From a virus (taxonomy: Duplodnaviria > Heunggongvirae > Uroviricota > Caudoviricetes), in the IMG/VR virus record IMGVR_UViG_2721755721_000006: DNA of 16,579 bases. One strand, given 5' to 3'. This document shows, piece after piece, positions 1-12,520 of this stretch. The position numbers and the translations under genes are program-made. Every line of letters begins with the position of its first letter. Positions within the stretch are counted from its first letter, which is position 1. A model generated the notes under the pieces. It did no database searches. It was not told where the DNA came from and worked only from the letters and a program-made list of their open reading frames with translations.

Positions 1-210
1 ATGAAACACCGGACCTGGATCACTGAAGCTTTACGTCTTCACTTTGAAGAACATTTACCCCGGGTTGTGGCCGGGCGTCGCCTGAGTGTACCAAAATCAA
101 CAGTTTGTAGTATGTTCGTGCGCTTTCGGAGAGCTGGCCTTTCGTGGCCTTTGCCCGCAGGCATGTCGGAGCAGGAACTTGATGCCTGCCTTTACGGACA
201 ATTTTCCACG
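1..210 (+). pseudogene. IS21-family IstA transposase, N-terminal fragment (HTH region only)
   Basis: Translation of 1-210 (…RRLSVPKSTV…RRAGLSWPLP…MSEQELDA…) matches the HTH and GLSWPLP-type motif I remember from IS21 IstA N-termini. The rest of IstA and any IstB are absent. The frame runs on into an unrelated IS66 TnpA-like segment, so this is a remnant. Confidence 0.4.
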
Positions 211-255
211 GTACCAGTCGTACGTCCTGAAAGCACCGTTATATCCGAAGCCCCC

Positions 256-609
256 GTGGTAAAAAAACGTCCCCGGCGGCCCAACTTCCCTTATGAGTTT
301 AAAATCGCCTTAGTGGAGCAGTCACTACAGCCCGGAGCCTGTGTGGCGCAGATCGCCCGGGAAAACGGAATCAACGATAACCTGCTCTTCAACTGGCGCC
401 ATCAATACCGGAAAGGTGGCCTGCTGCCTTCCGGAAAAAATATGCCGGCACTGCTTCCCGTGACGTTAACGCCGGAGCCGGATAATAAAATCCCGGCCCC
501 CGCACAGGAACCAGAGCAGATAAATACACCGTCCGACAGTCTGTGTTGTGAGCTGGTTCTGCCGGCCGGAACTCTCAGGCTTAAAGGTAAACTGACGCCG
601 GCGTTATTA
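256..609 (+). pseudogene. IS66-family TnpA (orf1)-like remnant, cut at the IRR of the intact IS66 copy
   Basis: The peptide RPRRPNFPYEFKIALVEQSLQPGACVAQIARENGINDNLLFNWRHQYRKGG aligns directly with the intact IS66 TnpA at 2632-3057 (EPRKNYSNEFKLRMVELASQPGACVAQIARENGVNDNVIFKWLRLWQNEG). A possible GTG start lies at 256. Homology ends at 609, where the IS66 terminal repeat GTAAGCG begins. No tnpB or tnpC follows on this strand. Confidence 0.6.
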
Positions 610-610
610 C

Positions 611-634
611 GTAAGCGTCAACGGAGCACCGTAT
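611..634. repeat. IS66 terminal inverted repeat (tnpC-proximal end)
   Basis: GTAAGCGTCAACGGAGCACCGTAT, compared with the reverse complement of 3119-3142 (GTAAGCGTAAACTGACCGCCGTAT). Confidence 0.6.
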
Positions 635-640
635 TGACGC

Positions 641-2254
641 TTATTTATTGGTGAGTACTACGTTCCATGGCAGGAGTTCATCAACTCGGTTGGAAGGCCA
701 TTCCGGCAGTACGCTCAGGATATGGCGCAGATACGCTTCCGGATCGATACCGTTCAGACGGCAGGTGCCGATCAGCCCGTACAACAGTGCTCCACGCTCG
801 CCGCCGTGATCGCTGCCAAAGAACATAAAGTTTTTCTTTCCGAGACAGACTGCACGAAGCGCTCTTTCCGCAGCATTATTATCCGCCTCCGCCAGACCGT
901 CATCACTGTAATAACAGAGGGCATCCCACTGATTCAGTACATAGCTGAACGCTTCGCCCAGTCTGGATTTTTTCGACAGCGTACCATTCTTCTCCACCAT
1001 CCATTCATGCAGCGACGTCAGTAACACTTTGCTTCGCTGCTGCCTGACGGCAAGACGCTCTAACTCCGGTAATCCCCGTATTTCATCCTCGATGGCGTAC
1101 AGTTCACTGATTCGCTTCAGGGCTTCTTCTGCCGTCGCACTTTTGCTGCTGATGTATACATCGTGGATTTTTCGCCGGGCATGGGCCCAGCACGCAACTT
1201 CTGTCAGTGCACCACCTTCACGTTCTGCACTGAACAACCTGTCGTAACCTGTGAACGCATCCGCCTGCAGGATACCCCGGAAGGGGCGGAGGTGTTGCTC
1301 CGGGTGTTTCCCCTGCCGGTTCGGCGAGTACGCGAACCAGACCGCTGGAGGAGATGACGAACCCACATTGCGATCATCCCGGACATACGTCCAGATACGC
1401 CCTGTTTTCGCCTTTTTCTGACCCGGTGCCAGTACCTTTACCGGTGTGTCATCAGTGTGAACCTTGCGGGTGTTCATTACATAACGGTACAGGGCATCAT
1501 TCACCGGTGTCATTAACTGGCAGCACGCGTCAACCCAGTTGGAGAGTAAGGCCCGGCTCAGTTCGACACCCTGGCGGGCAAAGATTTCACTCTGACGATA
1601 CAGTGGCAGATGTTCGCAGTATTTTCCCGTTAACACGCGGGCAAGTAATCCGGGGCCCGCGATACCACGCTCTATCGGGCGGGACGGCGCCGGTGCTTCA
1701 ACAATACAGTCACATTTTGTACAGGCTTTTTTTACCCGTTCTGTGCGGATCACTTTCAGGGCACTGCTCACCAGTTCCAGCTGTTCAGCGCTGACTTCCC
1801 CCAGATAATCCAGCTCACCGCCACACTCCGGGCAACAGCTTTCTTCTGGCTCCAGGCGGTGTATTTCACGGGGAAGGTGTGCCGGTAACGGACGACGATG
1901 GCGCGACTGTCGCAACTGGCGGGGAACCTGAGGATCGTCTTCCCGCCCACTGTAACGATCGCTGTCCTGTTCACGTTGTTTCAGCAGAGCCTCAGCCAGT
2001 TCAACTTCACGACGCAGTTTTTCAGAACGGGTACCGAACAGCATCCGGCGCAGTTTTTCTATCTGAGCCCGCAGATGTTCTATTTCCCGTTCATCTTCTT
2101 CGATCTTTTCTTCGGCACGTGTCAGTGCAGAGCGCAGGAAGGCTTCCGTCTCTTCAACCAGACTCAGTTGCTGGTCTTTCTGACGGAGGGCTTCAGCCTG
2201 CTCAGAGAGCAACCTTTCCAGCTCTGCGATGCGAATGAGGTATTTCTGACTCAT
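641..2254 (-). CDS. tnpC: IS66-family transposase TnpC (537 aa)
   Basis: N-terminal coiled-coil/leucine-zipper region, a CPECGG…CTKCDC zinc-finger region and a long DDE-type core. Size and order match IS66 TnpC. Confidence 0.92.
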   Translation of the reverse strand: MSQKYLIRIAELERLLSEQAEALRQKDQQLSLVEETEAFLRSALTRAEEKIEEDEREIEHLRAQIEKLRRMLFGTRSEKLRREVELAEALLKQREQDSDRYSGREDDPQVPRQLRQSRHRRPLPAHLPREIHRLEPEESCCPECGGELDYLGEVSAEQLELVSSALKVIRTERVKKACTKCDCIVEAPAPSRPIERGIAGPGLLARVLTGKYCEHLPLYRQSEIFARQGVELSRALLSNWVDACCQLMTPVNDALYRYVMNTRKVHTDDTPVKVLAPGQKKAKTGRIWTYVRDDRNVGSSSPPAVWFAYSPNRQGKHPEQHLRPFRGILQADAFTGYDRLFSAEREGGALTEVACWAHARRKIHDVYISSKSATAEEALKRISELYAIEDEIRGLPELERLAVRQQRSKVLLTSLHEWMVEKNGTLSKKSRLGEAFSYVLNQWDALCYYSDDGLAEADNNAAERALRAVCLGKKNFMFFGSDHGGERGALLYGLIGTCRLNGIDPEAYLRHILSVLPEWPSNRVDELLPWNVVLTNK

Positions 2255-2284
2255 GACCGTTTTTATAATGCGGTCAGGAGTTTT

Positions 2285-2635
2285 TTACAACATTGTCAGT
2301 GAGTTACGGCTGGATGTTTTTGGCTGACGCCAGTCCAGCTTATCGAGGAGCATTGCCAGTTGCGAGCGGGTAATGGATACCTTGCCGTCACGTACCGCAG
2401 GCCAGATAAACTGGCCTTCCTCCAGGCGTTTGGTGAACAGGCACAGACCATCAGCATCAGCCCAAAGAATTTTGACGGTGTCACCCCGTCGGCCACGGAA
2501 GATAAACAGGTGACCGGAGAAGGGATTATCATTCAGCACATGTTGTACCTGTTCTCCCAGTCCGTTGAAGGATTTACGCATATCGGTAACGCCGGCAACG
2601 AGCCAGATACGGGTACCTGATGGGAGTGAGATCAT
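2285..2635 (-). CDS. tnpB: IS66-family accessory protein TnpB (orf2, 116 aa)
   Basis: MISLPSGTRIWLVAGVTDMRKSFNGL… is the hallmark IS66 Orf2 N-terminus. Its ATGA overlaps the tnpA stop. Confidence 0.92.
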   Translation of the reverse strand: MISLPSGTRIWLVAGVTDMRKSFNGLGEQVQHVLNDNPFSGHLFIFRGRRGDTVKILWADADGLCLFTKRLEEGQFIWPAVRDGKVSITRSQLAMLLDKLDWRQPKTSSRNSLTML

Positions 2636-3057
2636 CTTCCCCTCCCGGTCAGTTCACGGATCAACACTGTGAGCAGCTCTGGCGATGGATTTTCCAGCGT
2701 CATGTTACCGTGACGGAATTCCACCTTGCAGGAACTGGCACTGACTCTGGTCTGAGTGGAAGTGGATAAAGACGGCGCAATGGCCGCCACAGGTTCTTTC
2801 TGCTCATCCGGCGTTATTTCTACAGGTAATAATTCAACGCCAGTGTCAGAAGAGGTCGTTACCGGAAGACGCCGCGAAACACGCCCTTCGTTCTGCCAGA
2901 GCCTGAGCCATTTGAAAATAACATTATCATTGACGCCATTTTCACGTGCAATCTGTGCAACACAAGCTCCAGGTTGTGATGCCAGTTCCACCATACGAAG
3001 TTTGAATTCATTCGAATAGTTTTTACGAGGTTCTTTTCGCCAGTCCTGTAATTCCAT
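2632..3057 (-). CDS. tnpA: IS66-family accessory protein TnpA (orf1, 141 aa, HTH)
   Basis: First gene inside the tnpA-proximal terminal repeat. HTH segment QPGACVAQIARENGVNDN. ATG confirmed at 3055-3057. Confidence 0.9.
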   Translation of the reverse strand: MELQDWRKEPRKNYSNEFKLRMVELASQPGACVAQIARENGVNDNVIFKWLRLWQNEGRVSRRLPVTTSSDTGVELLPVEITPDEQKEPVAAIAPSLSTSTQTRVSASSCKVEFRHGNMTLENPSPELLTVLIRELTGRGR

Positions 3058-3118
3058 ACTTAGATGTCCGTCTATATCAGATGGGCGTCTAAGTTACCAA
3101 TTCTCGTCTGATGGCTAC

Positions 3119-3142
3119 ATACGGCGGTCAGTTTACGCTTAC
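3119..3142. repeat. IS66 terminal inverted repeat (tnpA-proximal end)
   Basis: Reverse complement is GTAAGCGTAAACTGACCGCCGTAT. It lies 85 bp upstream of the tnpA start. Confidence 0.6.
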
Positions 3143-3284
3143 GGTAATTCTGAATCAGCCACTCGACCTGTTCTTCAGTGCATTGGTCATGCTGGTACCA
3201 GTCATATTTGAATGCGTGAGAGCGCCGTCCGTGTCTGCTGGCAGGGTCGGCATCAGAATTGTGGTGTTTGGTATTGTGCGCCAT
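3143..3284 (-). pseudogene. 5' fragment of an unknown ORF, interrupted by the IS66 insertion
   Basis: ATG at 3284 opens MAHNTKHHNSDADPASRHGRRSHAFKYDWYQHDQCTEEQVEWLIQNYR. The frame then runs into the IS66 terminal repeat and stops at 3072 inside the IS. The upstream Shine-Dalgarno is weak. Confidence 0.2.
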
Positions 3285-3351
3285 CGGTTGTCTCTGCTGG
3301 CGCAGCAGGTGCCAGTTGTTCAGGCTGGCGTGTGGATTGTAAACCAGAATG

Positions 3352-3383
3352 CCAGGAAAAAACAAAACCCGCGAAGCGGGTTA
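3352..3383 (-). terminator. Rho-independent terminator downstream of the restriction endonuclease gene
   Basis: On the minus strand a GC-rich hairpin (AACCCGC / GCGGGTT, 3366-3382) is followed immediately by UUGUUUUUUCC. On the plus strand no U-tract follows, so it is unidirectional. It lies 70 bp past the R stop. Confidence 0.7.
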
Positions 3384-3454
3384 GTAAAAATGTACTGAAG
3401 TCAATGACGTGCCATCACAGTTAAAATATGACAGACTCTATTTACGTAGAGATG

Positions 3455-4333
3455 TCAGACTGCAAGATCCAAGGGAAGATCAGAAATATCCTTTAATCTT
3501 TTACCATTAACCATCACGGAAAGCATGTCAGCTGCATCGCTGAGCCCCAGTATTTCAACTGCTGATATAAGTTCATAAAGCGCAAAATGATACACGCAAT
3601 CTATATCACCAGTACCAAGAGCAATAGACGCCAGACGACTTGGAGTAGGCTCAGCAGTAACAACCATTACATGAGGGAGATTTCCCTTACGGTTGCGAAT
3701 AAGATTTAATGCCTCAGAACGAGCATTCTGGGCCCGGTCGCTTCTTATTGTCCATTTGCAGGAAATACTTGCGTGTAATATTGGTTTCCCACCATTCGAA
3801 CTCCTGAGAGCTGACATGCGGGTAACAGAATCATCCACCAGTAATTCAGGACTGTTGATAACTTGATCACATTCAGGTTCTCTTTCAACAATAATATCTG
3901 GTGAAATCGTATAATCACTCCCCAGTGCAGCAGCTAGCTGAGGATTACTTTTTGCAGCACTATCCAATGCTATAAGATGGGCATATTGTTCATATTTAGC
4001 TATCTCTAATCTGTTTCTACCAGAAACCTGATGTACATTCCATTTTCCAGGGCGTAAGTGGCTGAGTTTAAAAAAGGTTTTTTCTATAAACTCTGCGCAG
4101 ATACTCTCAAACTGATTACCAGATGTTTGCCCTGCAACACGTTCACCAATCGTTTCAGCCTGCAAGAAGCGAGCAATTTCTCTTGCTATAGCTTTACTGT
4201 TTTTGTTACTGCTATCTGCGTTACTAACAACTCCGGCAGTATTAATTGTGAGCGTATTCAGTAACAATTGGGCATGAAACTCCTTTCTGGCTTCAGCAAA
4301 ACCAACTATGCTGTCAACCAAATCTCCATTCAT
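3455..4333 (-). CDS. Type II restriction endonuclease, Cfr10I/NgoMIV-like PD-(D/E)xK family (292 aa from the ATG at 4333)
   Basis: Immediately downstream of the m5C methyltransferase gene. The sequence TGA-AGGAAATCCAGAA-ATG gives a Shine-Dalgarno 9 nt before the ATG at 4331-4333. The protein has PD (in TISPDIIVERE), then SCK 47 residues later, then E 14 residues after the K. The six-frame ORF extends to 4468 but that part overlaps the M gene 3' end. Confidence 0.72.
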   Translation of the reverse strand: MNGDLVDSIVGFAEARKEFHAQLLLNTLTINTAGVVSNADSSNKNSKAIAREIARFLQAETIGERVAGQTSGNQFESICAEFIEKTFFKLSHLRPGKWNVHQVSGRNRLEIAKYEQYAHLIALDSAAKSNPQLAAALGSDYTISPDIIVEREPECDQVINSPELLVDDSVTRMSALRSSNGGKPILHASISCKWTIRSDRAQNARSEALNLIRNRKGNLPHVMVVTAEPTPSRLASIALGTGDIDCVYHFALYELISAVEILGLSDAADMLSVMVNGKRLKDISDLPLDLAV

Positions 4334-4346
4334 TTCTGGATTTCCT

Positions 4347-5471
4347 TCAGGCTGCTTGACTATTCTTACTGATGTTATTCTTATACCGTCCCTGCAAAAC
4401 TCCATACACATATTGTGCGATTTTTGCCGCAAATAGCGGTGGAACAGCATTCCCGATCTGCTTTGCAATCTCAGTTTTTGAACCGGTAAAAATGAAATTA
4501 TCAGGAAAAGACATTAATCTCGCTGCCTCACGATGAGTTATTGGCCGATCCTCTTCCGGATGTAAATATCGCCCTTTCTCCGGTTTGAAAAACTCAGTAC
4601 GAATCGTTACTGAAGGTCTGTCCCACCACAGACGTCCAAACAAATCGGTCCCTCCAGATTTCTTTTTTAGCCAGCACGCCGGGGTTATATCAGGTCTTTT
4701 TTTCTGTAAATCGAAACGGTTACCTCCTGGTGGAACCGCTTTATATCGCTCCAGAGAAACAGGTGTGGGATTACGCCCAAAATGTAAGTTCAGCGGAGGA
4801 AGTTCATTACGAATATCAGTTCCAACAGGAGCAGGTAAGTCACCAATTGCATCACGCGTACAGACCCATTCAGGCAAAGCGACATCCTTATCAGGGGAAC
4901 GATGCGTTGGTGCTGGCGGGAACGCCGGAATACTATGCACATCGAAGAGTTCTCGTTTGATACCGATTGCTATCGTTCGTTTTCTTGTCTGAGGTACTCC
5001 ATAGTCAGCAGTATTCAACACCATTGGATTAAGCAGAATAAAGCCCATGGATTTCGCTCTAAACGTAATGTCCGCAAACTCATCGCTTATCAGCAATCCG
5101 GGGACATTTTCCATGACGAACATACAAGCCCTTGAACGCTCAATGACATCCATATAAGGCTCCCACAATGCTCTTCGGTGATCACCATAACGATTCTTAT
5201 TCAATAAACTGAATCCCTGACACGGGGGGCCACCTATGACCACATCAGCCTCAGGAACAGTATTGCTGGATGCCCACTCCTCAATATTTGCCTGAACTCC
5301 ATGCAAACCAAAATTGGCATTGTAGGTATTTATAGCTGCAGCATTATTATCAATAGCAAGGATACTTTCAAAGTAGTCAGACATCTCTCCATGAAGAAAA
5401 CCATAAGATAATCCACCTGCCCCACAAAAGAGGTCTATCACTCTGAATTTATTTAATTCTTTCATCCGCAT
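4347..5471 (-). CDS. DNA (cytosine-5)-methyltransferase (374 aa)
   Basis: Canonical m5C methyltransferase motifs in order: FCGAGG (I), GGPPCQGFS (IV, catalytic Cys), ENV (VI), QTRKR (VIII), GNAVPP (X). There is no N-terminal HTH extension. Confidence 0.93.
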   Translation of the reverse strand: MRMKELNKFRVIDLFCGAGGLSYGFLHGEMSDYFESILAIDNNAAAINTYNANFGLHGVQANIEEWASSNTVPEADVVIGGPPCQGFSLLNKNRYGDHRRALWEPYMDVIERSRACMFVMENVPGLLISDEFADITFRAKSMGFILLNPMVLNTADYGVPQTRKRTIAIGIKRELFDVHSIPAFPPAPTHRSPDKDVALPEWVCTRDAIGDLPAPVGTDIRNELPPLNLHFGRNPTPVSLERYKAVPPGGNRFDLQKKRPDITPACWLKKKSGGTDLFGRLWWDRPSVTIRTEFFKPEKGRYLHPEEDRPITHREAARLMSFPDNFIFTGSKTEIAKQIGNAVPPLFAAKIAQYVYGVLQGRYKNNISKNSQAA

Positions 5472-5554
5472 CCATATGCCTCAGATTAATGTTGAGCGTC
5501 TTACAGGACGCGTAATGTTAACTGGGGCTTTCTCTATCTGCCTTTTGGTGTTCA

Positions 5555-5579
5555 TGCCTGAGGCAGACAGCCTCAGGCA
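5555..5579. repeat. Perfect 9-bp inverted repeat (TGCCTGAGG-N7-CCTCAGGCA) between queH-like and the methyltransferase gene
   Basis: Stem 5555-5563 pairs with 5571-5579 around the loop CAGACAG. No U-tract follows on either strand, so it is not a canonical terminator. It sits about 85-100 bp upstream of the M start. Confidence 0.4.
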
Positions 5580-5649
5580 CCCGCAGCAATTCTACTTAAC
5601 TCACGTCACCTCGCCAATATGAAATCAATCAGAAAGGTGATCCATAAAA

Positions 5650-6336
5650 TCACTCCTTCTCTTCTTTTCCGTAGTGGAGTTGGCCAATTTTGATAAGAGG
5701 GCGTCCCTGAGATTTGCGGTGTAGATTGGTATCGCGCAGAGAATACACACAGCCACAATATTCCTGCTGATAGAATTTTTCGCGCTTGCTGATTTCAATC
5801 ATACGGGACGAGCCGCCCTGCTTGCGCCAGTTATAATCCCAGTACACCATACCCGGATAATGCGCAACAGCTCGCCGCCCACACTCGTTAACCTGCTGCA
5901 TATTTTTCCAGCGTGAAATGCCCAGTGAACTACTGATCACACTGAAACCATTTTCAGCAGCGTACAACGCTGTCCGCTCAAAACGCATGTCAAAACACAT
6001 GGTACAACGGATCCCCCTCTCAGGCTCCCATTCCATTCCTTTGGCACGTTCAAACCAGTTGTCGGTGTCGTAATCAGCATCGATAAACGGCACGCCGTGT
6101 TGTTCAGCAAAGCGAATATTTTCATCCTTACGAATTAAATACTCTTTCTGAGGATGAATGTTCGGGTTGTAGAAAAAGATGGTGTAGTCGATTCCCGAGG
6201 CCTGAAGCGCCTCCATCACTTCACCGGAACATGGAGCACAGCAAGAGTGCAGTAGTAGTTTGTTTGCCCCGTTTGGAAGCTCCAATTTAGGCCGTTTGAA
6301 ATCAGCAATAGTCATAAATATTTTTATTGGGGTCAT
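5650..6336 (-). CDS. queH: QueH-like protein (DUF208; putative epoxyqueuosine reductase family)
   Basis: Shows the DUF208/QueH signatures [24 protein letters not shown] and QEYCGCVY. An alternative ATG start at 6315 would shorten the N-terminus. No obvious Shine-Dalgarno at either start. Confidence 0.75.
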
Positions 6337-9460: not shown

Positions 9461-9886
9461 TTAGTGCATCACCACAGCATTCCCTGCCGGGCCGCCGCGA
9501 TTCATCTGGTCATACAAAACAACCGCTGACGCAACAAAATCATCGACATCCTTCACCAGCCGATCCCTCCGTTCGACGATCTCACGGTAATATTCAGAAC
9601 TGTGGCTGCGCATACGGGCCACCAGCAGAGGCGGCATTGCCTTTTCGATCGCCGGTAACAGAGCCTGAATTTTTTCAACAGCATCAGGGGTGTCTTTATC
9701 CAGCCAACGGAAAATTTTCTGTGTATTACGGGCCAGGGCTTCCGGATGGCTGTCGTCGTACAGTTCAGGGAACGTCATCCCCAGTTCGAAATAAGTCCGG
9801 GCTATTTCAGCTGCAGGAACTTTCTCACCATCAGGGTATGCCCAGGCATTCATCGCCATGCGGATGTGCTCATGTTTGATTTTCAT
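9461..9886 (-). CDS. YdaT-like protein (CII-position regulator of Rac/CP-933P-type prophages; 141 aa)
   Basis: Second gene of the rightward-operon analogue, directly after the Cro-like gene (its ATG at 9884-9886 overlaps the upstream stop at 9870). Size matches what I recall for YdaT (~140 aa). Assignment rests on position and size, not a verified alignment. Confidence 0.6.
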   Translation of the reverse strand: MKIKHEHIRMAMNAWAYPDGEKVPAAEIARTYFELGMTFPELYDDSHPEALARNTQKIFRWLDKDTPDAVEKIQALLPAIEKAMPPLLVARMRSHSSEYYREIVERRDRLVKDVDDFVASAVVLYDQMNRGGPAGNAVVMH

Positions 9887-10193
9887 GAATCATTTGCCTC
9901 TTGATGCTTCGGGTATGATCGTTTTCGTCATTTGGTTGCTTCATCGACATATTCTGCGAATAACATGACGAGCGTCGTAAGTATGTCCAATCAACATCAG
10001 GACGAAGTTCTTCACACAGGACACCACCTTTTGTTGCTCGTTCAATCGCAGGACATCTCTCAGCAGGCAACTGACGTACACCTTTGATCCATTGATTTAC
10101 GCTTGGAGGAGATACACCTAAAAGCCTAGCCATTGCTGATTGCCCACCGACAACAGCACAAGCTCGTTTGAATGAATAGTTATCTTTTTTCAT
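9870..10193 (-). CDS. Cro/YdaS-like HTH regulator (107 aa from the ATG at 10193)
   Basis: HTH segment QSAMARLLGVSPPSVNQWIKGVRQLP. GGAG lies 8 nt before the ATG. It is the first gene after the divergent PR-like promoter. The six-frame ORF begins at a GTG at 10214, which coincides with the predicted transcription start. Confidence 0.72.
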   Translation of the reverse strand: MKKDNYSFKRACAVVGGQSAMARLLGVSPPSVNQWIKGVRQLPAERCPAIERATKGGVLCEELRPDVDWTYLRRSSCYSQNMSMKQPNDENDHTRSIKRQMIHENQT

Positions 10194-10220
10194 CGAATGA
10201 ACTCCAAAAAACACGCAACA

Positions 10221-10250
10221 ATATTAGGCTTAGCCTAATACAATTGTCAA
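10221..10250 (-). promoter_or_regulatory. PR-like sigma70 promoter driving the Cro/YdaS-like operon
   Basis: Minus strand reads TTGACA (plus 10245-10250), an 18-nt spacer, then TAATAT (plus 10221-10226). The spacer contains the operator dyad ATTAGGCTAAGCCTAAT. Confidence 0.6.
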
Positions 10251-10288
10251 TAGGCTATGCCTAACACATCGAGAGTAGGGATTGCCTA
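10223..10288. promoter_or_regulatory. Three operator-like dyads (OR analogue) in the divergent intergenic region
   Basis: ATTAGGCTTAGCCTAAT (10223-10239), TAGGCTATGCCTA (10251-10263) and TAGGGATTGCCTA (10276-10288). Centres are about 25 bp apart. Consensus TAGGC-N3-GCCTA. Confidence 0.55.
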
Positions 10289-10317
10289 ACGCGATGCGCA
10301 TAGGAGACTATTAAGCA

Positions 10318-10794
10318 ATGCTTAGTGGTAAAGACTTAGGCCGAGCGATAGAGCAGGCCATTAACAAAAAAATTGCATCAGGAGCCGTCAAATCAAAGGC
10401 GGAAATCGCACGTCATTTCAAAGTCCAACCACCATCAATCCATGACTGGATTAAGAAAGGTTCGATAAGTAAAGACAAACTTCCAGAACTATGGCGTTTC
10501 TTTTCTGATGTGGTTGGTCCAGAGCATTGGGGGCTTAACGAATACCCCATACCAACCCCATCCACTTCAGATACAAAAAGTGAACTTTTAGACATAAACA
10601 GCCTTTATCAAGCCGCCTCTGATGAAAAAAGAGCAATTGTGGCTTTCCTCTTATCTGGAAATGCTACGGAGCCTAGTTGGGTTGATCATGACGTTCGCGC
10701 CTACATTGCCGCAATGGAAATGAAGGTAGCTAACTATCTGAAAAATCAAGAATCAAAACGGAAAAGCCAGAACATCACCAAGACAGGAACTTAA
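10318..10794 (+). CDS. Prophage repressor, RacR-like (158 aa, HTH, no recognisable LexA-type autocleavage domain)
   Basis: Divergent from the Cro-like gene. TAGGAGA lies 10 nt before the ATG at 10318. HTH segment KSKAEIARHFKVQPPSIHDWIKKGS. Flanked on both sides by the same operator dyads. Confidence 0.72.
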   Translation: MLSGKDLGRAIEQAINKKIASGAVKSKAEIARHFKVQPPSIHDWIKKGSISKDKLPELWRFFSDVVGPEHWGLNEYPIPTPSTSDTKSELLDINSLYQAASDEKRAIVAFLLSGNATEPSWVDHDVRAYIAAMEMKVANYLKNQESKRKSQNITKTGT

Positions 10795-10808
10795 ACTTAT
10801 ATGGTCCG

Positions 10809-10830
10809 ACGGGAAATTCCTAGTTCCCGT
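10809..10830 (+). terminator. Weak hairpin downstream of the repressor gene (candidate terminator)
   Basis: ACGGGAA / TTCCCGT stem with an 8-nt loop, 13 bp after the stop. The following sequence TAGTT is only weakly U-rich. Confidence 0.25.
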
Positions 10831-10887
10831 TAGTTAACTCCTACTACCTCTCCCACAAACCATCACCTATTAGGTCGCGCCCAAATT

Positions 10888-10931
10888 ATTAGGCATAGCC
10901 TATTGACAAGTAATTAGGCATTTCCTATAGT
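10888..10931 (+). promoter_or_regulatory. PL-like sigma70 promoter with overlapping operator dyads (OL analogue)
   Basis: TTGACA (10903-10908), a 17-nt spacer, then TATAGT (10926-10931). Operator dyads TAGGCATAGCCTA (10890-10902) and TAGGCATTTCCTA (10915-10927) have the same core as the OR sites. Confidence 0.6.
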
Positions 10932-11116
10932 TTTCCCATACCAACCCATCCCGTCCCACACAATACAGGGCAATACCTCGAGTTACCAGGCAGTGGTCAG
11001 GGGTTAAGTAGCCAGCCCGAGGCGTAAGAACATGACGGCAGGGTTCAACTTTAATAACTATGCAGCAGGTTTTTGTTCCGCTACCCCGGCGTTAAGGGGA
11101 AACAGAGGGTTTCTCA

Positions 11117-11763: not shown

Positions 11764-12331
11764 TAGCTAACCAACGAAGCTAAGGTTGGTAATTAAGGAG
11801 TTCTCCACGGGTGAGGTGGAGTGCGTGCGCCGGACACGGGTGAGCATCCGGCACTGACAGTTTACTGAAAGGATATTTCCCTGAAAAGTCAGACCATAAC
11901 GCGAAAGCGCACGGCGAGGTAGCTGGTTCATAGATAGCCTGTCGTTAAATTTTCGTCGACCGTGCGCTTCCGGTTGTGGCAATCCGCGAAATGGCGCGGC
12001 GGTAAGTATGGCGGGGTTATTCCTTCCCCCGTTGAGGACACCGGGTTGTCAGGTTGACCATACGCTTAAGTGACAACCCCGCTGCAACGCCCTCTGTTAT
12101 CAATTTTCTGGTGACGTTTGGCGGTATCAGTTTTACTCCGTGACTGCTCTGCCGCCCTTTTTAAAGTGAATTTTGTGATGCGGTGAATGCGGCTGAGCGC
12201 ACGCGGAACAGTTAAAACCAAAAACAGTGTTATGGGTGGATTCTCTGTATCCGGCGTTAATTGTTAACTGGTTAACGTCACCTGGAGGCACCAGGCACTG
12301 CATCACAAAATTCATTGTTGAGGACGCGATA

Positions 12332-12520
12332 ATGGAAACGTTATTACCAAACGTTAATACGTCTGAAGGTTGTTTTGATATTGGTGTTCTGCTCAGTAAC
12401 CGGGAGTTTACTGAAGATGCCATTAATATGAGGAAATATGAGCCTTATCTGCTCAATGATAATTCCATACTTTCCCGAATTGCTCTTCTTGAACTTGGTA
12501 TTTTCGGAGAACGTCAATGA
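12332..12520 (+). CDS. Small hypothetical protein (62 aa), first gene of a translationally coupled pair
   Basis: ATG at 12332 with AGGA 7 nt upstream. Its stop overlaps the next start in an ATGA at 12517-12520. The six-frame ORF begins further upstream at a GTG at 12227 that has no Shine-Dalgarno. Confidence 0.5.
   Translation: METLLPNVNTSEGCFDIGVLLSNREFTEDAINMRKYEPYLLNDNSILSRIALLELGIFGERQ

Follow-up and report, generated by a model that had tools for sequence, protein, structure and literature searches.

A probable Rac-type lambdoid immunity module with predicted RacR-repressed promoters on both sides of racR

The closest described relative of the locus analysed here is the immunity region of the Rac prophage of E. 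coli K-12, for which others have reported DNase I footprints over the OR dyads, the start site of PydaS and autorepression by RacR; the footprints yield the operator consensus (T/A)TAGGC-n3-GCCTA(T/A), and protection is known solely for the racR-ydaS intergenic region (PMC9638921). RacR is an octamer in solution, and its regulon outside ydaST has been termed uncharacterised (PMC11014345), while a fall in RacR raises kilR, ydaF, ydaG, ydaE and racC 40- to 70-fold (PMC6765115). The K-12 YdaT protein activates a reverse promoter directed toward racR from a site known as the YdaT-box (PMC11879457). Two other prophage systems are related in design. In Qin the PR-like promoter and the PL-like promoter have three operators each, PL drives ydfABC-dicF-dicB, and the whole acts as a bistable switch (PMC10448788). 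In CP-933P the PL933P hexamers match those of PR, and regulation has been demonstrated with reporters (PMC8630535).

The OR half, octamer formation, the analogy with lambda, the operator consensus and switches operating without a LexA-like domain have thus all been published, and the idea itself is not new. In the literature searched we found no description of an OL/PL half, no RacR site at OL and no genome-wide RacR binding; nor, for RacR prophages including that of K-12, did we find binding, start-site or reporter data for OL/PL. An older description is possible, for example in the Rac kil paper of Conter et al. (1996, J Bacteriol).

We analysed a stretch of tailed-phage DNA of 16,579 nucleotides (IMG/VR record IMGVR_UViG_2721755721_000006), referred to here in its full length as the window. 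One region of it is, with good confidence, a Rac-type lambdoid prophage immunity module in which RacR represses both PR and PL and its own gene, and in which YdaS and YdaT have regulatory roles. Its protein-coding genes and the YdaT-box are as follows.

9461..9886, minus strand: ydaT, which comes second in the PR operon and encodes a cII-like regulator (Pfam YdaT_toxin, E = 8.2e-11)
9870..10193, minus strand: ydaS, which heads the PR operon and encodes a Cro-like HTH protein (Pfam YdaS_toxin, 3.8e-30; P22_Cro, 1e-08)
9876..9893, minus strand: YdaT-box, ATGATTCATGAAAATCAA, read from the sequence and lying across the ydaT start codon
10318..10794, plus strand: racR, a 158-aa repressor with a lambda-repressor-like HTH N-terminal domain and a helical, non-S24 C-terminal domain

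The initial annotation had called the repressor RacR-type and non-LexA-like, and both descriptions hold. It scores 246.8 bits against the RacR equivalog NF049929 of NCBIfam, for which the cut-off is 200, and K-12 RacR is 92% identical to it over 158 aa. A Pfam search matched zero families and hence zero S24 peptidase domains. The N-terminal domain has the five helices of a lambda-repressor-like (Xre/Cro-C1) HTH. Searching the PDB by sequence gave nothing meaningful, and we turned to a search by fold; models of the C-terminal domain show helices, for which the PDB offered no convincing counterpart. An S24 domain is present in nine of ten scanned homologs that have the N-terminal domain of RacR, and in such proteins the RacR DNA-binding domain is joined to an S24 peptidase domain of LexA-like type while the operator layout stays unchanged.

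The genes racR and ydaS are divergent, as expected for a lambdoid repressor and a cro-like gene, with related operators between them that overlap both promoters; four dyads within 124 bp cover PydaS and the start of racR. We compared 59 loci encoding the RacR N-terminal domain, from Enterobacterales to Burkholderiales, examining 2.5 kb of each, and in 47 of them the repressor gene has a ydaS homolog as its divergent neighbour. The ydaT gene, which PGAP annotates on identical DNA as 'toxin YdaT family protein', and the YdaT-box, the same in sequence as the K-12 box on which YdaT was footprinted, together supply the elements of a cII-like activator, whose function is established in K-12 alone.

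Dyads of the form TAGGC-N3-GCCTA (TAGGCNNNGCCTA) with no more than one mismatch occur five times in the 16.6-kb window, at 10225, 10251, 10276, 10890 and 10915, against 0.29 expected, and none of 200 shuffles reached five. All of them fall inside the two clusters, 10225-10288 and 10890-10927, that had been claimed from inspection of the sequence, and the claim of clustering is thereby upheld. Allowing two mismatches adds 10312-10324, over the racR ATG, and 10871-10883; the window-wide count at this threshold (seven, versus 4.39 expected) is not significant by itself, and we therefore take the evidence from the one-mismatch count and the clustering.

10225..10237, no strand: OR1, TAGGCTTAGCCTA, perfect; within the PR spacer with a 2-bp overlap of the -10
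10251..10263, no strand: OR2, TAGGCTATGCCTA, perfect; adjoins the PR -35 hexamer and lies within the 21-nt repeat shared with OL2
10276..10288, no strand: OR3, TAGGGATTGCCTA, one mismatch; overlaps the likely -35 of a leaderless racR promoter
10312..10324, no strand: OR4, TAAGCAATGCTTA, two mismatches; centred on the racR ATG and absent from the initial annotation
10871..10883, no strand: doubtful third OL dyad, TAGGTCGCGCCCA, two mismatches; 19 bp from OL2
10890..10902, no strand: OL2, TAGGCATAGCCTA, perfect; adjoins the PL -35 hexamer
10915..10927, no strand: OL1, TAGGCATTTCCTA, one mismatch; in the PL spacer with a 2-bp overlap of the -10, mirroring OR1

The expectation that an operator consensus could be read directly from the sequence was well founded, as the motif agrees with the footprint-derived K-12 consensus (PMC9638921). 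The four intergenic sites at 10225, 10251, 10276 and 10312 fit it with zero, zero, one and two mismatches, respectively, and align with the K-12 sites. In K-12, the counterpart of OR1 needs the least RacR for protection (PMC9638921). OR3 is unchanged across three aligned Rac-type sequences and matches the -35 dyad of other genera, and OR4 is the counterpart of the published K-12 operator overlapping the ATG; most of the 59 loci have a dyad at its position, as a rule TAGGCAATGCTTA. On the other side, the third OL dyad is a doubtful member of the set, weak and off-register: only its left half, CCATCACCTATTAGGT, is invariant, and that only among the three aligned Rac-type sequences, and other genera among the compared loci show no consistent counterpart. 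The dyads had been counted as three on the OR side and two or three on the OL side; two OL dyads are indeed solid and the third is in question, but OR has four. Similarly, the proposed spacing of about 25 bp describes three of the centre-to-centre intervals (26 and 25 bp at OR, 25 bp at OL), but not the 36-bp interval at OR or the 19-bp interval at OL.

10221..10250, minus strand: PR equivalent (PydaS), TTGACA at 10250-10245, an 18-nt spacer and TAATAT at 10226-10221; 10 of 12 hexamer positions, from the promoter scan
10304..10309, plus strand: probable -10 of a leaderless racR promoter, GAGACT, from alignment with GAGAAT of K-12 PracR3 and the K-12 mapping
10903..10931, plus strand: PL equivalent, TTGACA at 10903-10908, a 17-nt spacer and TATAGT at 10926-10931; 11 of 12 hexamer positions, from the promoter scan
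10932..11116, plus strand: leader of the PL transcript, conserved and some 180 nt long, from alignment

Both of the outward-facing, near-consensus promoters that had been described were recovered by the scan. Hexamer matches of at least 10/12 are no rarer than chance, with four in the window and 3.93 in shuffles (at 11/12 there is one, versus 0.16), and for this reason we dropped the hexamer score as stand-alone evidence and rest the promoter calls on context. For PR this context includes K-12 PydaS, whose hexamers are identical and were located by primer extension and -10 mutagenesis (PMC9638921). The predicted PL is directed outward from racR into the recombination/int operon. At the racR promoter GAGACT is the probable -10, as judged by alignment; the mapped K-12 PracR2 -10, AGTAAG, is not kept in the window, which has CGAGAG instead. 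K-12 Rac keeps the PL leader, and so does the O103 RM8385 prophage, which is of different immunity. The leader folds no more stably than its shuffles do (z = +1.05) and matched no Rfam family, and we rejected it as a structured or known RNA; a conserved small ORF within it is unlikely because an indel between K-12 and the window shifts the frame. We also set aside L001 (strain A1) as an annotation proxy past PL, where its coordinates do not fit the window.

These elements suggest a mechanism in which RacR dimers would bind the 13-bp dyads, with an extended half-site aTTAGGC. The leftward PR would transcribe ydaS, ydaT and the replication genes, and the rightward PL a ydfC-dicF-dicB-exonuclease-int operon. 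Each early promoter would carry one dyad adjoining the -35 and one in the spacer overlapping the -10, so that bound RacR would exclude RNA polymerase. The two extra OR dyads, at position -36 and at the racR ATG, overlap the putative leaderless racR promoter and may serve autorepression. YdaS would take the role of Cro, and YdaT that of cII, with the box at 9876-9893 driving the reverse promoter toward racR. Because RacR is an octamer, it could join the OR pair to the OL pair across the intervening 640-690 bp or so by looping the DNA, as happens in lambda. We infer that RacR binds at OL, that PL is active, and that there is looping and bistability.

On the last of these the K-12 reports are ambiguous. 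In K-12, YdaS is reported not to repress racR (PMC9638921), which weakens the bistable, Cro-like feedback part of the model, and inactivation of ydaS lifts PydaST 16-fold, indicating autoregulation of PR only (PMC11879457). Together with a repressor that has neither an S24 domain nor a known inducer, these data speak for a one-way lock, in which the layout is lambda-like and RacR silences PR and PL, but YdaS autoregulates PR without shutting off racR, and there is no self-sustaining anti-immune state. We consider this arrangement rather unlikely, given that the same laboratory later has RacR and YdaS competing for operators, that the analogous modules DicA/DicC of Qin and PaaR2/YdaS of CP-933P act as bistable switches, and that at 47 of the 59 loci YdaS has been inherited together with the dyads and the N-terminal domain of RacR.

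The OL/PL cassette was examined in the same set of loci. Together they contain 163 dyads with no more than one mismatch, compared to 4.3 in shuffles, and a pair of dyads 23-27 bp apart is found in 26 of them and in none of the shuffles. A pair lies downstream of the repressor in 20 of the 59, within the 2.5 kb examined and amid unrelated flanks, and only these 20 have an OL pair. Their layout is kept, as dyad|TTGACA-6/7 nt-dyad|-10: TTGAC[A/T] directly follows the first dyad in 18 of the 20, and in nearly all the terminal TA of the second dyad begins a -10-like hexamer. The complete Klebsiella phage KpF5 has a matching layout. In the window the corresponding second cluster lies beyond the 3' end of racR as OL2|TTGACA-17-TATAGT|OL1, at 10890-10931, with both binding and promoter activity predicted. 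The segments 10244-10264 and 10889-10909 form a perfect inverted repeat of 21 nt, each copy of which takes in a -35 and one dyad. Homology with the O103 prophage, which has another repressor and other operators, begins at 10936, just past the -10, and the -35 of that prophage aligns with the -35 of PL; the boundary of the immunity module is placed here at PL +1. Conservation at a distance and this mosaic boundary argue strongly for the predicted OL/PL half.

The same observations bear on whether, in a prophage undergoing decay, the downstream cassette could be a relic that no longer functions or an accidental duplicate of its OR counterpart. This prophage carries IS66 and further insertions and K-12 Rac is defective, which speaks for this view, but the identical geometry in 20 loci from two classes of proteobacteria, as well as in a complete phage, with unrelated flanks, and the lack of any dyad pair in shuffles make it highly improbable.

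A different question is which protein binds at OL. RacR footprints cover the intergenic region only, and since YdaS co-varies with the module, conservation alone cannot name the OL-binding protein; RacR might thus be confined to the racR-ydaS intergenic region, and the downstream dyads bound mainly by YdaS or another factor. We regard this as improbable, because the OL dyads fit the footprint-derived RacR consensus no worse than OR1 and OR2, OL2 and the adjoining -35 repeat OR2 and its -35 perfectly over 21 nt, and lowered RacR derepresses genes of the left operon. Moreover, OL dyads track the OR dyads of their own genome, differing by 2.35 mismatches per 17-mer versus 3.28 for those of other genomes, and none of 5000 permutations equalled this.

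Binding of RacR on both sides of its gene thus remains our preferred reading, and it does not overturn current understanding. It completes the parts list of a Rac-type immunity region, including a PL/OL cassette absent from the K-12 descriptions found, and this cassette would explain the derepression, as RacR falls, of kilR, recET and xis-int in K-12 or of dicF and dicB in this prophage. Defined fragments are now on hand for footprinting, reporter fusions and looping assays. More tentatively, and with a little less than even confidence, we propose a broader interpretation, that the RacR N-terminal domain, TTAGGC dyads, PR/PL cassettes and YdaS form a chassis conserved across Gamma- and Betaproteobacteria on which the C-terminal domain is swapped between a LexA-like S24 autocleavage form and the helical oligomerisation form of RacR, with an octamer-bridged OR-OL loop of about 0.65 kb and a split OR2 in Escherichia. 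If so, phages with the same operators would differ in induction, some by SOS cleavage and others by a different route; in RacR-type members it would be the octamer that holds OR and OL together across the ~0.65-kb loop; and in the Rac-type loci of E. coli and E. ruysiae two dyads would stand where other members have the one shared OR2, as the outcome of a split, giving four OR sites and eight half-sites. One operator and DNA-binding-domain specificity common to SOS-cleavable and non-cleavable repressors is, more broadly, a tidy case of modular evolution in phage switches.

Among known systems, K-12 Rac (PMC9638921, PMC11014345, PMC11879457) is closest, with an identical racR-ydaS-ydaT gene order and the same dyad consensus, PydaS hexamers, four OR dyads, YdaT-box and OL/PL cassette downstream of racR. 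It differs in its DNA, which is in the 80-90% identity band (for one Rac-type phage record, identity across the immunity region is 87.8%), in the spacer triplets of its dyads and in the genes past PL, which are ydaG, ydaF, sieB and kilR in K-12 Rac and of Qin type (ydfC, dicF, dicB) here. The parallel drawn with lambda OL/OR logic stands in that two outward cassettes of equal geometry flank racR, as PR and PL do in lambda, but not in the number of sites, which is 4 + 2 plus one doubtful dyad rather than 3 + 3. Unlike the lambda repressor, RacR of the window has no S24 autocleavage domain; the operators are 13-bp dyads rather than 17 bp, and OL and OR are separated by about 0.65 kb instead of 2.3 kb. 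The dyad nearest the racR promoter overlaps its -35, so that repression is predicted where lambda has activation, and Cro-type repression of racR is only putative here. Qin DicA/DicC/dicBp (PMC10448788) likewise has a short repressor without a RecA cleavage site and a divergent Cro-like gene, but its repressor is DicA with other operators, and here the place of dicA and dicBp, ahead of an operon of dicBF type, is taken by the RacR cassette. The racR-PL region aligns poorly with dicA-dicBp and was rejected as its direct homolog, the Qin-like part starting further downstream. CP-933P (PMC8630535) differs in that PaaR2 is a distinct repressor, co-transcribed with a toxin-antitoxin pair and recognizing the half-site consensus GTTTAGTAA in 18-bp palindromes, but it shares with this module the YdaS and YdaT partners, an octameric repressor, and clusters of operators at both OR and OL.

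The 1,062 bases between coordinates 9870 and 10931 match several complete E. coli chromosomes at 100% identity, and of 5,426 complete E. coli genomes 1,085 contain at least 80% of them; in the matching genomes PGAP lists racR together with an HTH protein and a protein of the YdaT family. K-12 falls within the 80-90% band of DNA identity, and a single phage record, Escherichia phage vB_EcoS-683R6, matches the region (87.8%). The DNA forms a lambdoid prophage's immunity region, in which the right operon runs left in the window and the left (recombination/int) operon runs right:

Leftward: replication genes
9461-9886, leftward: ydaT
9870-10193, leftward: ydaS
10318-10794, rightward: racR
3' of racR, in this order: ydfC, DicF (12106-12157), dicB, an 823-aa exonuclease, integrase

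It is the Rac immunity module, which has been studied in depth, and its right-hand operators, consensus and lambda analogy have been published. RacR, YdaS and YdaT are the Rac equivalents of cI, Cro and cII (Casjens 2003; Jobling 2018; PMC5917428), and Krishnamurthi et al. (2017) showed RacR binding to the intergenic region and proposed the half-sites GCCTAA/TTAGGC. Primer extension identified a single ydaS promoter (-35 TTGACA, -10 TAATAT), footprinting of RacR on the intergenic region gave the consensus (T/A)TAGGC-n3-GCCTA(T/A) and assigned one operator to PydaS and another to the racR ATG, and the main racR promoter is leaderless (2022 NAR, PMC9638921). A 2023 follow-up counted four inverted repeats and described RacR as an octamer (PMC11014345). 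The racR-ydaS half (OR) of the initial annotation, including its 'testable consensus', was therefore already known.

The 158-aa racR product scores 246.8 bits against the NCBIfam RacR equivalog (cut-off 200), is 92% identical to K-12 RacR, and contains no Pfam domain, Peptidase_S24 included. In an AlphaFold2 model (mean pLDDT 78.6) the N-terminal domain is helical and its closest PDB structures are lambda-repressor-like HTH domains, namely the lambda cI N-terminal domain (score 7.7), ImmR (7.4), C.AhdI (7.3), P22 C2 (6.8) and the 434 repressor (6.0); the C-terminal domain, also helical in the model, had no convincing match in this comparison. The repressor is thus RacR-type and not LexA-like, as had been proposed.

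Five copies of the 13 bp dyad TAGGC-N3-GCCTA with no more than one mismatch are present in the 16.6 kb, all within 10225-10288 or 10890-10927, against 0.29 expected, and none of 200 shuffles reached this count. Allowing two mismatches adds dyads at 10312-10324, centred on the racR ATG, and at 10871-10883. Both outward sigma70 promoters were located, TTGACA (10250-10245)-18-TAATAT (10226-10221) on the minus strand (PR, toward ydaS/ydaT) and TTGACA (10903-10908)-17-TATAGT (10926-10931) on the plus strand (PL, toward the recombination/int operon). Hexamer scores alone are not above chance in the window at 10/12 or better (four sites, against 3.93 in shuffles), and one site reaches 11/12, against 0.16. 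The remarkable feature is the geometry: in both cassettes one dyad adjoins the -35 and the other lies in the spacer, its final TA opening the -10, and the -35 with its neighbouring dyad recurs across the two sides as a perfect 21-nt inverted repeat (10244-10264 / 10889-10909). The initial reading of the sequence is therefore correct with two amendments to the dyad counts: OR has four dyads rather than three, the one at the ATG having been missed, and the third dyad 3' of racR (OL), at 10871-10883, is doubtful. It carries two mismatches, lies 19 bp from its neighbour instead of 25 bp, and only its left half-site is invariant in an alignment of three Rac-type sequences.

Neither RacR sites nor a promoter 3' of racR turned up in the literature, of which the older part was incompletely covered; the RacR regulon, ydaFG included, is described as not characterised (PMC11014345). 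Reduction of RacR derepresses kilR, ydaF, ydaG, ydaE, racC, recET, xisR and intR. The comparative evidence for the OL/PL half is strong, and the cassette is very probably a genuine RacR-controlled early promoter. The same cassette aligns between racR and ydaG in K-12 Rac, where 7.5 kb contain four dyads at OR and two at OL with up to two mismatches, and no others. OL dyads also resemble the OR dyads of their own genome more than those of other genomes (2.35 vs 3.28 mismatches per 17-mer, a comparison that takes in the 'free' spacer triplet and flanks), a concerted variation reached by none of 5,000 permutations.

Homologues from Enterobacterales to Burkholderiales, Xanthomonadales and Pseudomonas share the first 73 residues of RacR almost without change. 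Fifty-nine loci encoding this domain contain 163 dyads with up to one mismatch, against 4.3 in dinucleotide shuffles, and 26 of them have a pair 23-27 bp apart, which no shuffle produced. In most, dyads sit at -60, -35 and 0, counted from the repressor ATG. In 20 of the 59 a pair spaced 24-25 bp lies 62 to about 1,700 bp past the repressor stop codon; TTGAC[A/T] directly follows its first dyad in 18 of these, the terminal TA of the second opens a TAnnnT-like hexamer in nearly all, and the flanking sequences are unrelated. Since a YdaS homologue is the divergent neighbour of the repressor in 47 of the 59 loci, conservation alone does not separate RacR from YdaS sites; the OR dyads are assigned to RacR by the K-12 footprints (PMC9638921). 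In the complete Klebsiella phage KpF5 (L065) the OR dyads lie at -60, -35 and 0 and an OL pair follows 1.4 kb downstream, with a DUF450 gene between repressor and OL (2977-4374) in the place held by rexAB in lambda. Several other loci have 0.6-1.7 kb of extra DNA between repressor and OL.

The best matches to DNA 3' of racR start at 10936, five bases past the -10. In one of these, E. coli O103 RM8385, a different repressor and a HigBA pair are encoded upstream and the operator-like repeats differ, yet the -35 (TTGACC) aligns with that of the window. Because homology to a prophage of different immunity begins here, the immunity module stops where PL transcription is predicted to start, the pattern of classic lambdoid mosaics. 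The exact 13-mer CCCATACCAACCC occurs both within racR (10546-10558) and at the predicted PL start (10935-10947), by rough estimate an unlikely chance recurrence in 850 bp. K-12 Rac and the O103 prophage both conserve the predicted PL leader (10932-11116, about 180 nt), the homology starting directly past the -10. The 5' end of the leader is C-rich and G-poor, like Rho-loading sites; its folding does not exceed that of shuffles, and it matched no Rfam family.

DicF (12106-12157, plus strand; Rfam 76.7 bits) and dicB (about 12332-12520)/ydfD sit in the operon 3' of this RacR-type PL, and in this prophage, a Rac/Qin mosaic, the DicF and DicB cell-division inhibitors would be controlled by RacR instead of DicA. 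The prophage also carries a type II restriction-modification system on the minus strand (3455-5471; NgoMIV-type endonuclease and C5 cytosine methyltransferase, the listed ORFs overlapping). A restriction-modification controller protein is known to disturb K-12 RacR, which makes this co-residence curious. A sok antitoxin RNA match (5402-5582, minus strand; 61 bits, gathering score 59) implies a hok/sok module. Other genes include an IS66-family element (641-3057, minus strand) with transposase, TnpB-like Orf2 and HTH Orf1, an additional HTH_Tnp_1 ORF at the window edge (1-654, plus strand), and QueH (epoxyqueuosine reductase; 5650-6336).

In most genera (L008-L062 of our collected loci) OR comprises three dyads: those at -60 and -35 serve PR with the geometry seen at PL, and those at -35 and 0 bracket the leaderless repressor promoter, so that both promoters use the middle one. 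Four are present in the Escherichia Rac-type loci (E. coli and E. ruysiae, L004-L007, and the window), at -87, -61, -36 and 0; PR and its two dyads lie one 26-bp unit farther out, and the repressor promoter retains its own dyad at -36. One 26-bp dyad unit appears to have been duplicated, un-sharing the middle operator between PR and the repressor promoter. The -36 dyad (10276-10288) holds the best -35 candidate of the leaderless promoter, TTGCCT, 16 nt upstream of GAGACT (10304-10309), as read from the sequence and the K-12 alignment. This placement agrees better with autorepression, as reported in K-12, than with activation in the manner of lambda. The -10 of K-12 PracR2 is not conserved in the window. 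The YdaT-box at 9876-9893 is unchanged from that footprinted in K-12.

On the best-supported account, RacR dimers bound to both dyads at each outward promoter would exclude RNA polymerase, and at higher concentration RacR would fill the -36 and ATG dyads and turn racR off, with YdaS providing a Cro-like and YdaT a cII-like function. Bridging of OR and OL across about 0.65 kb by the published RacR octamer is plausible. The circuit may act as the bistable switch first suggested, with a one-way lock as the less likely rival.

Nine of ten longer homologues scanned join the RacR-type N-terminal domain to Peptidase_S24, and such proteins come from Achromobacter, Pigmentiphaga, Bordetella, Lysobacter, Sphaerotilus and Pseudomonas, with one Pectobacterium-type protein (loci L014, L016, L019, L022, L024, L026, L035 and L040; homologous proteins P0101, P0102 and P0114). 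Their DNA-binding domains are about 50-86% identical to that of RacR, their hosts are Beta- and Gammaproteobacteria, and the loci scannable for dyads have the same -60/-35/0 layout plus an OL pair. The specificity of operator and DNA-binding domain thus predates the RacR C-terminal domain and is more widespread, and RacR looks like a classical cI-type repressor whose C-terminal domain has been swapped.

The left-hand OL/PL cassette, like the domain-swap observation, adds incrementally to the known Rac module. Lambda logic with a repressor that is not LexA-like is not a new concept: Qin DicA/DicC/dicBp is a bistable, lambda-like OR/OL switch (PMC10448788), and CP-933P PaaR2/YdaS is a lambda-like switch with demonstrated PL and OL (PMC8630535), the repressors of both lacking a LexA-like domain.
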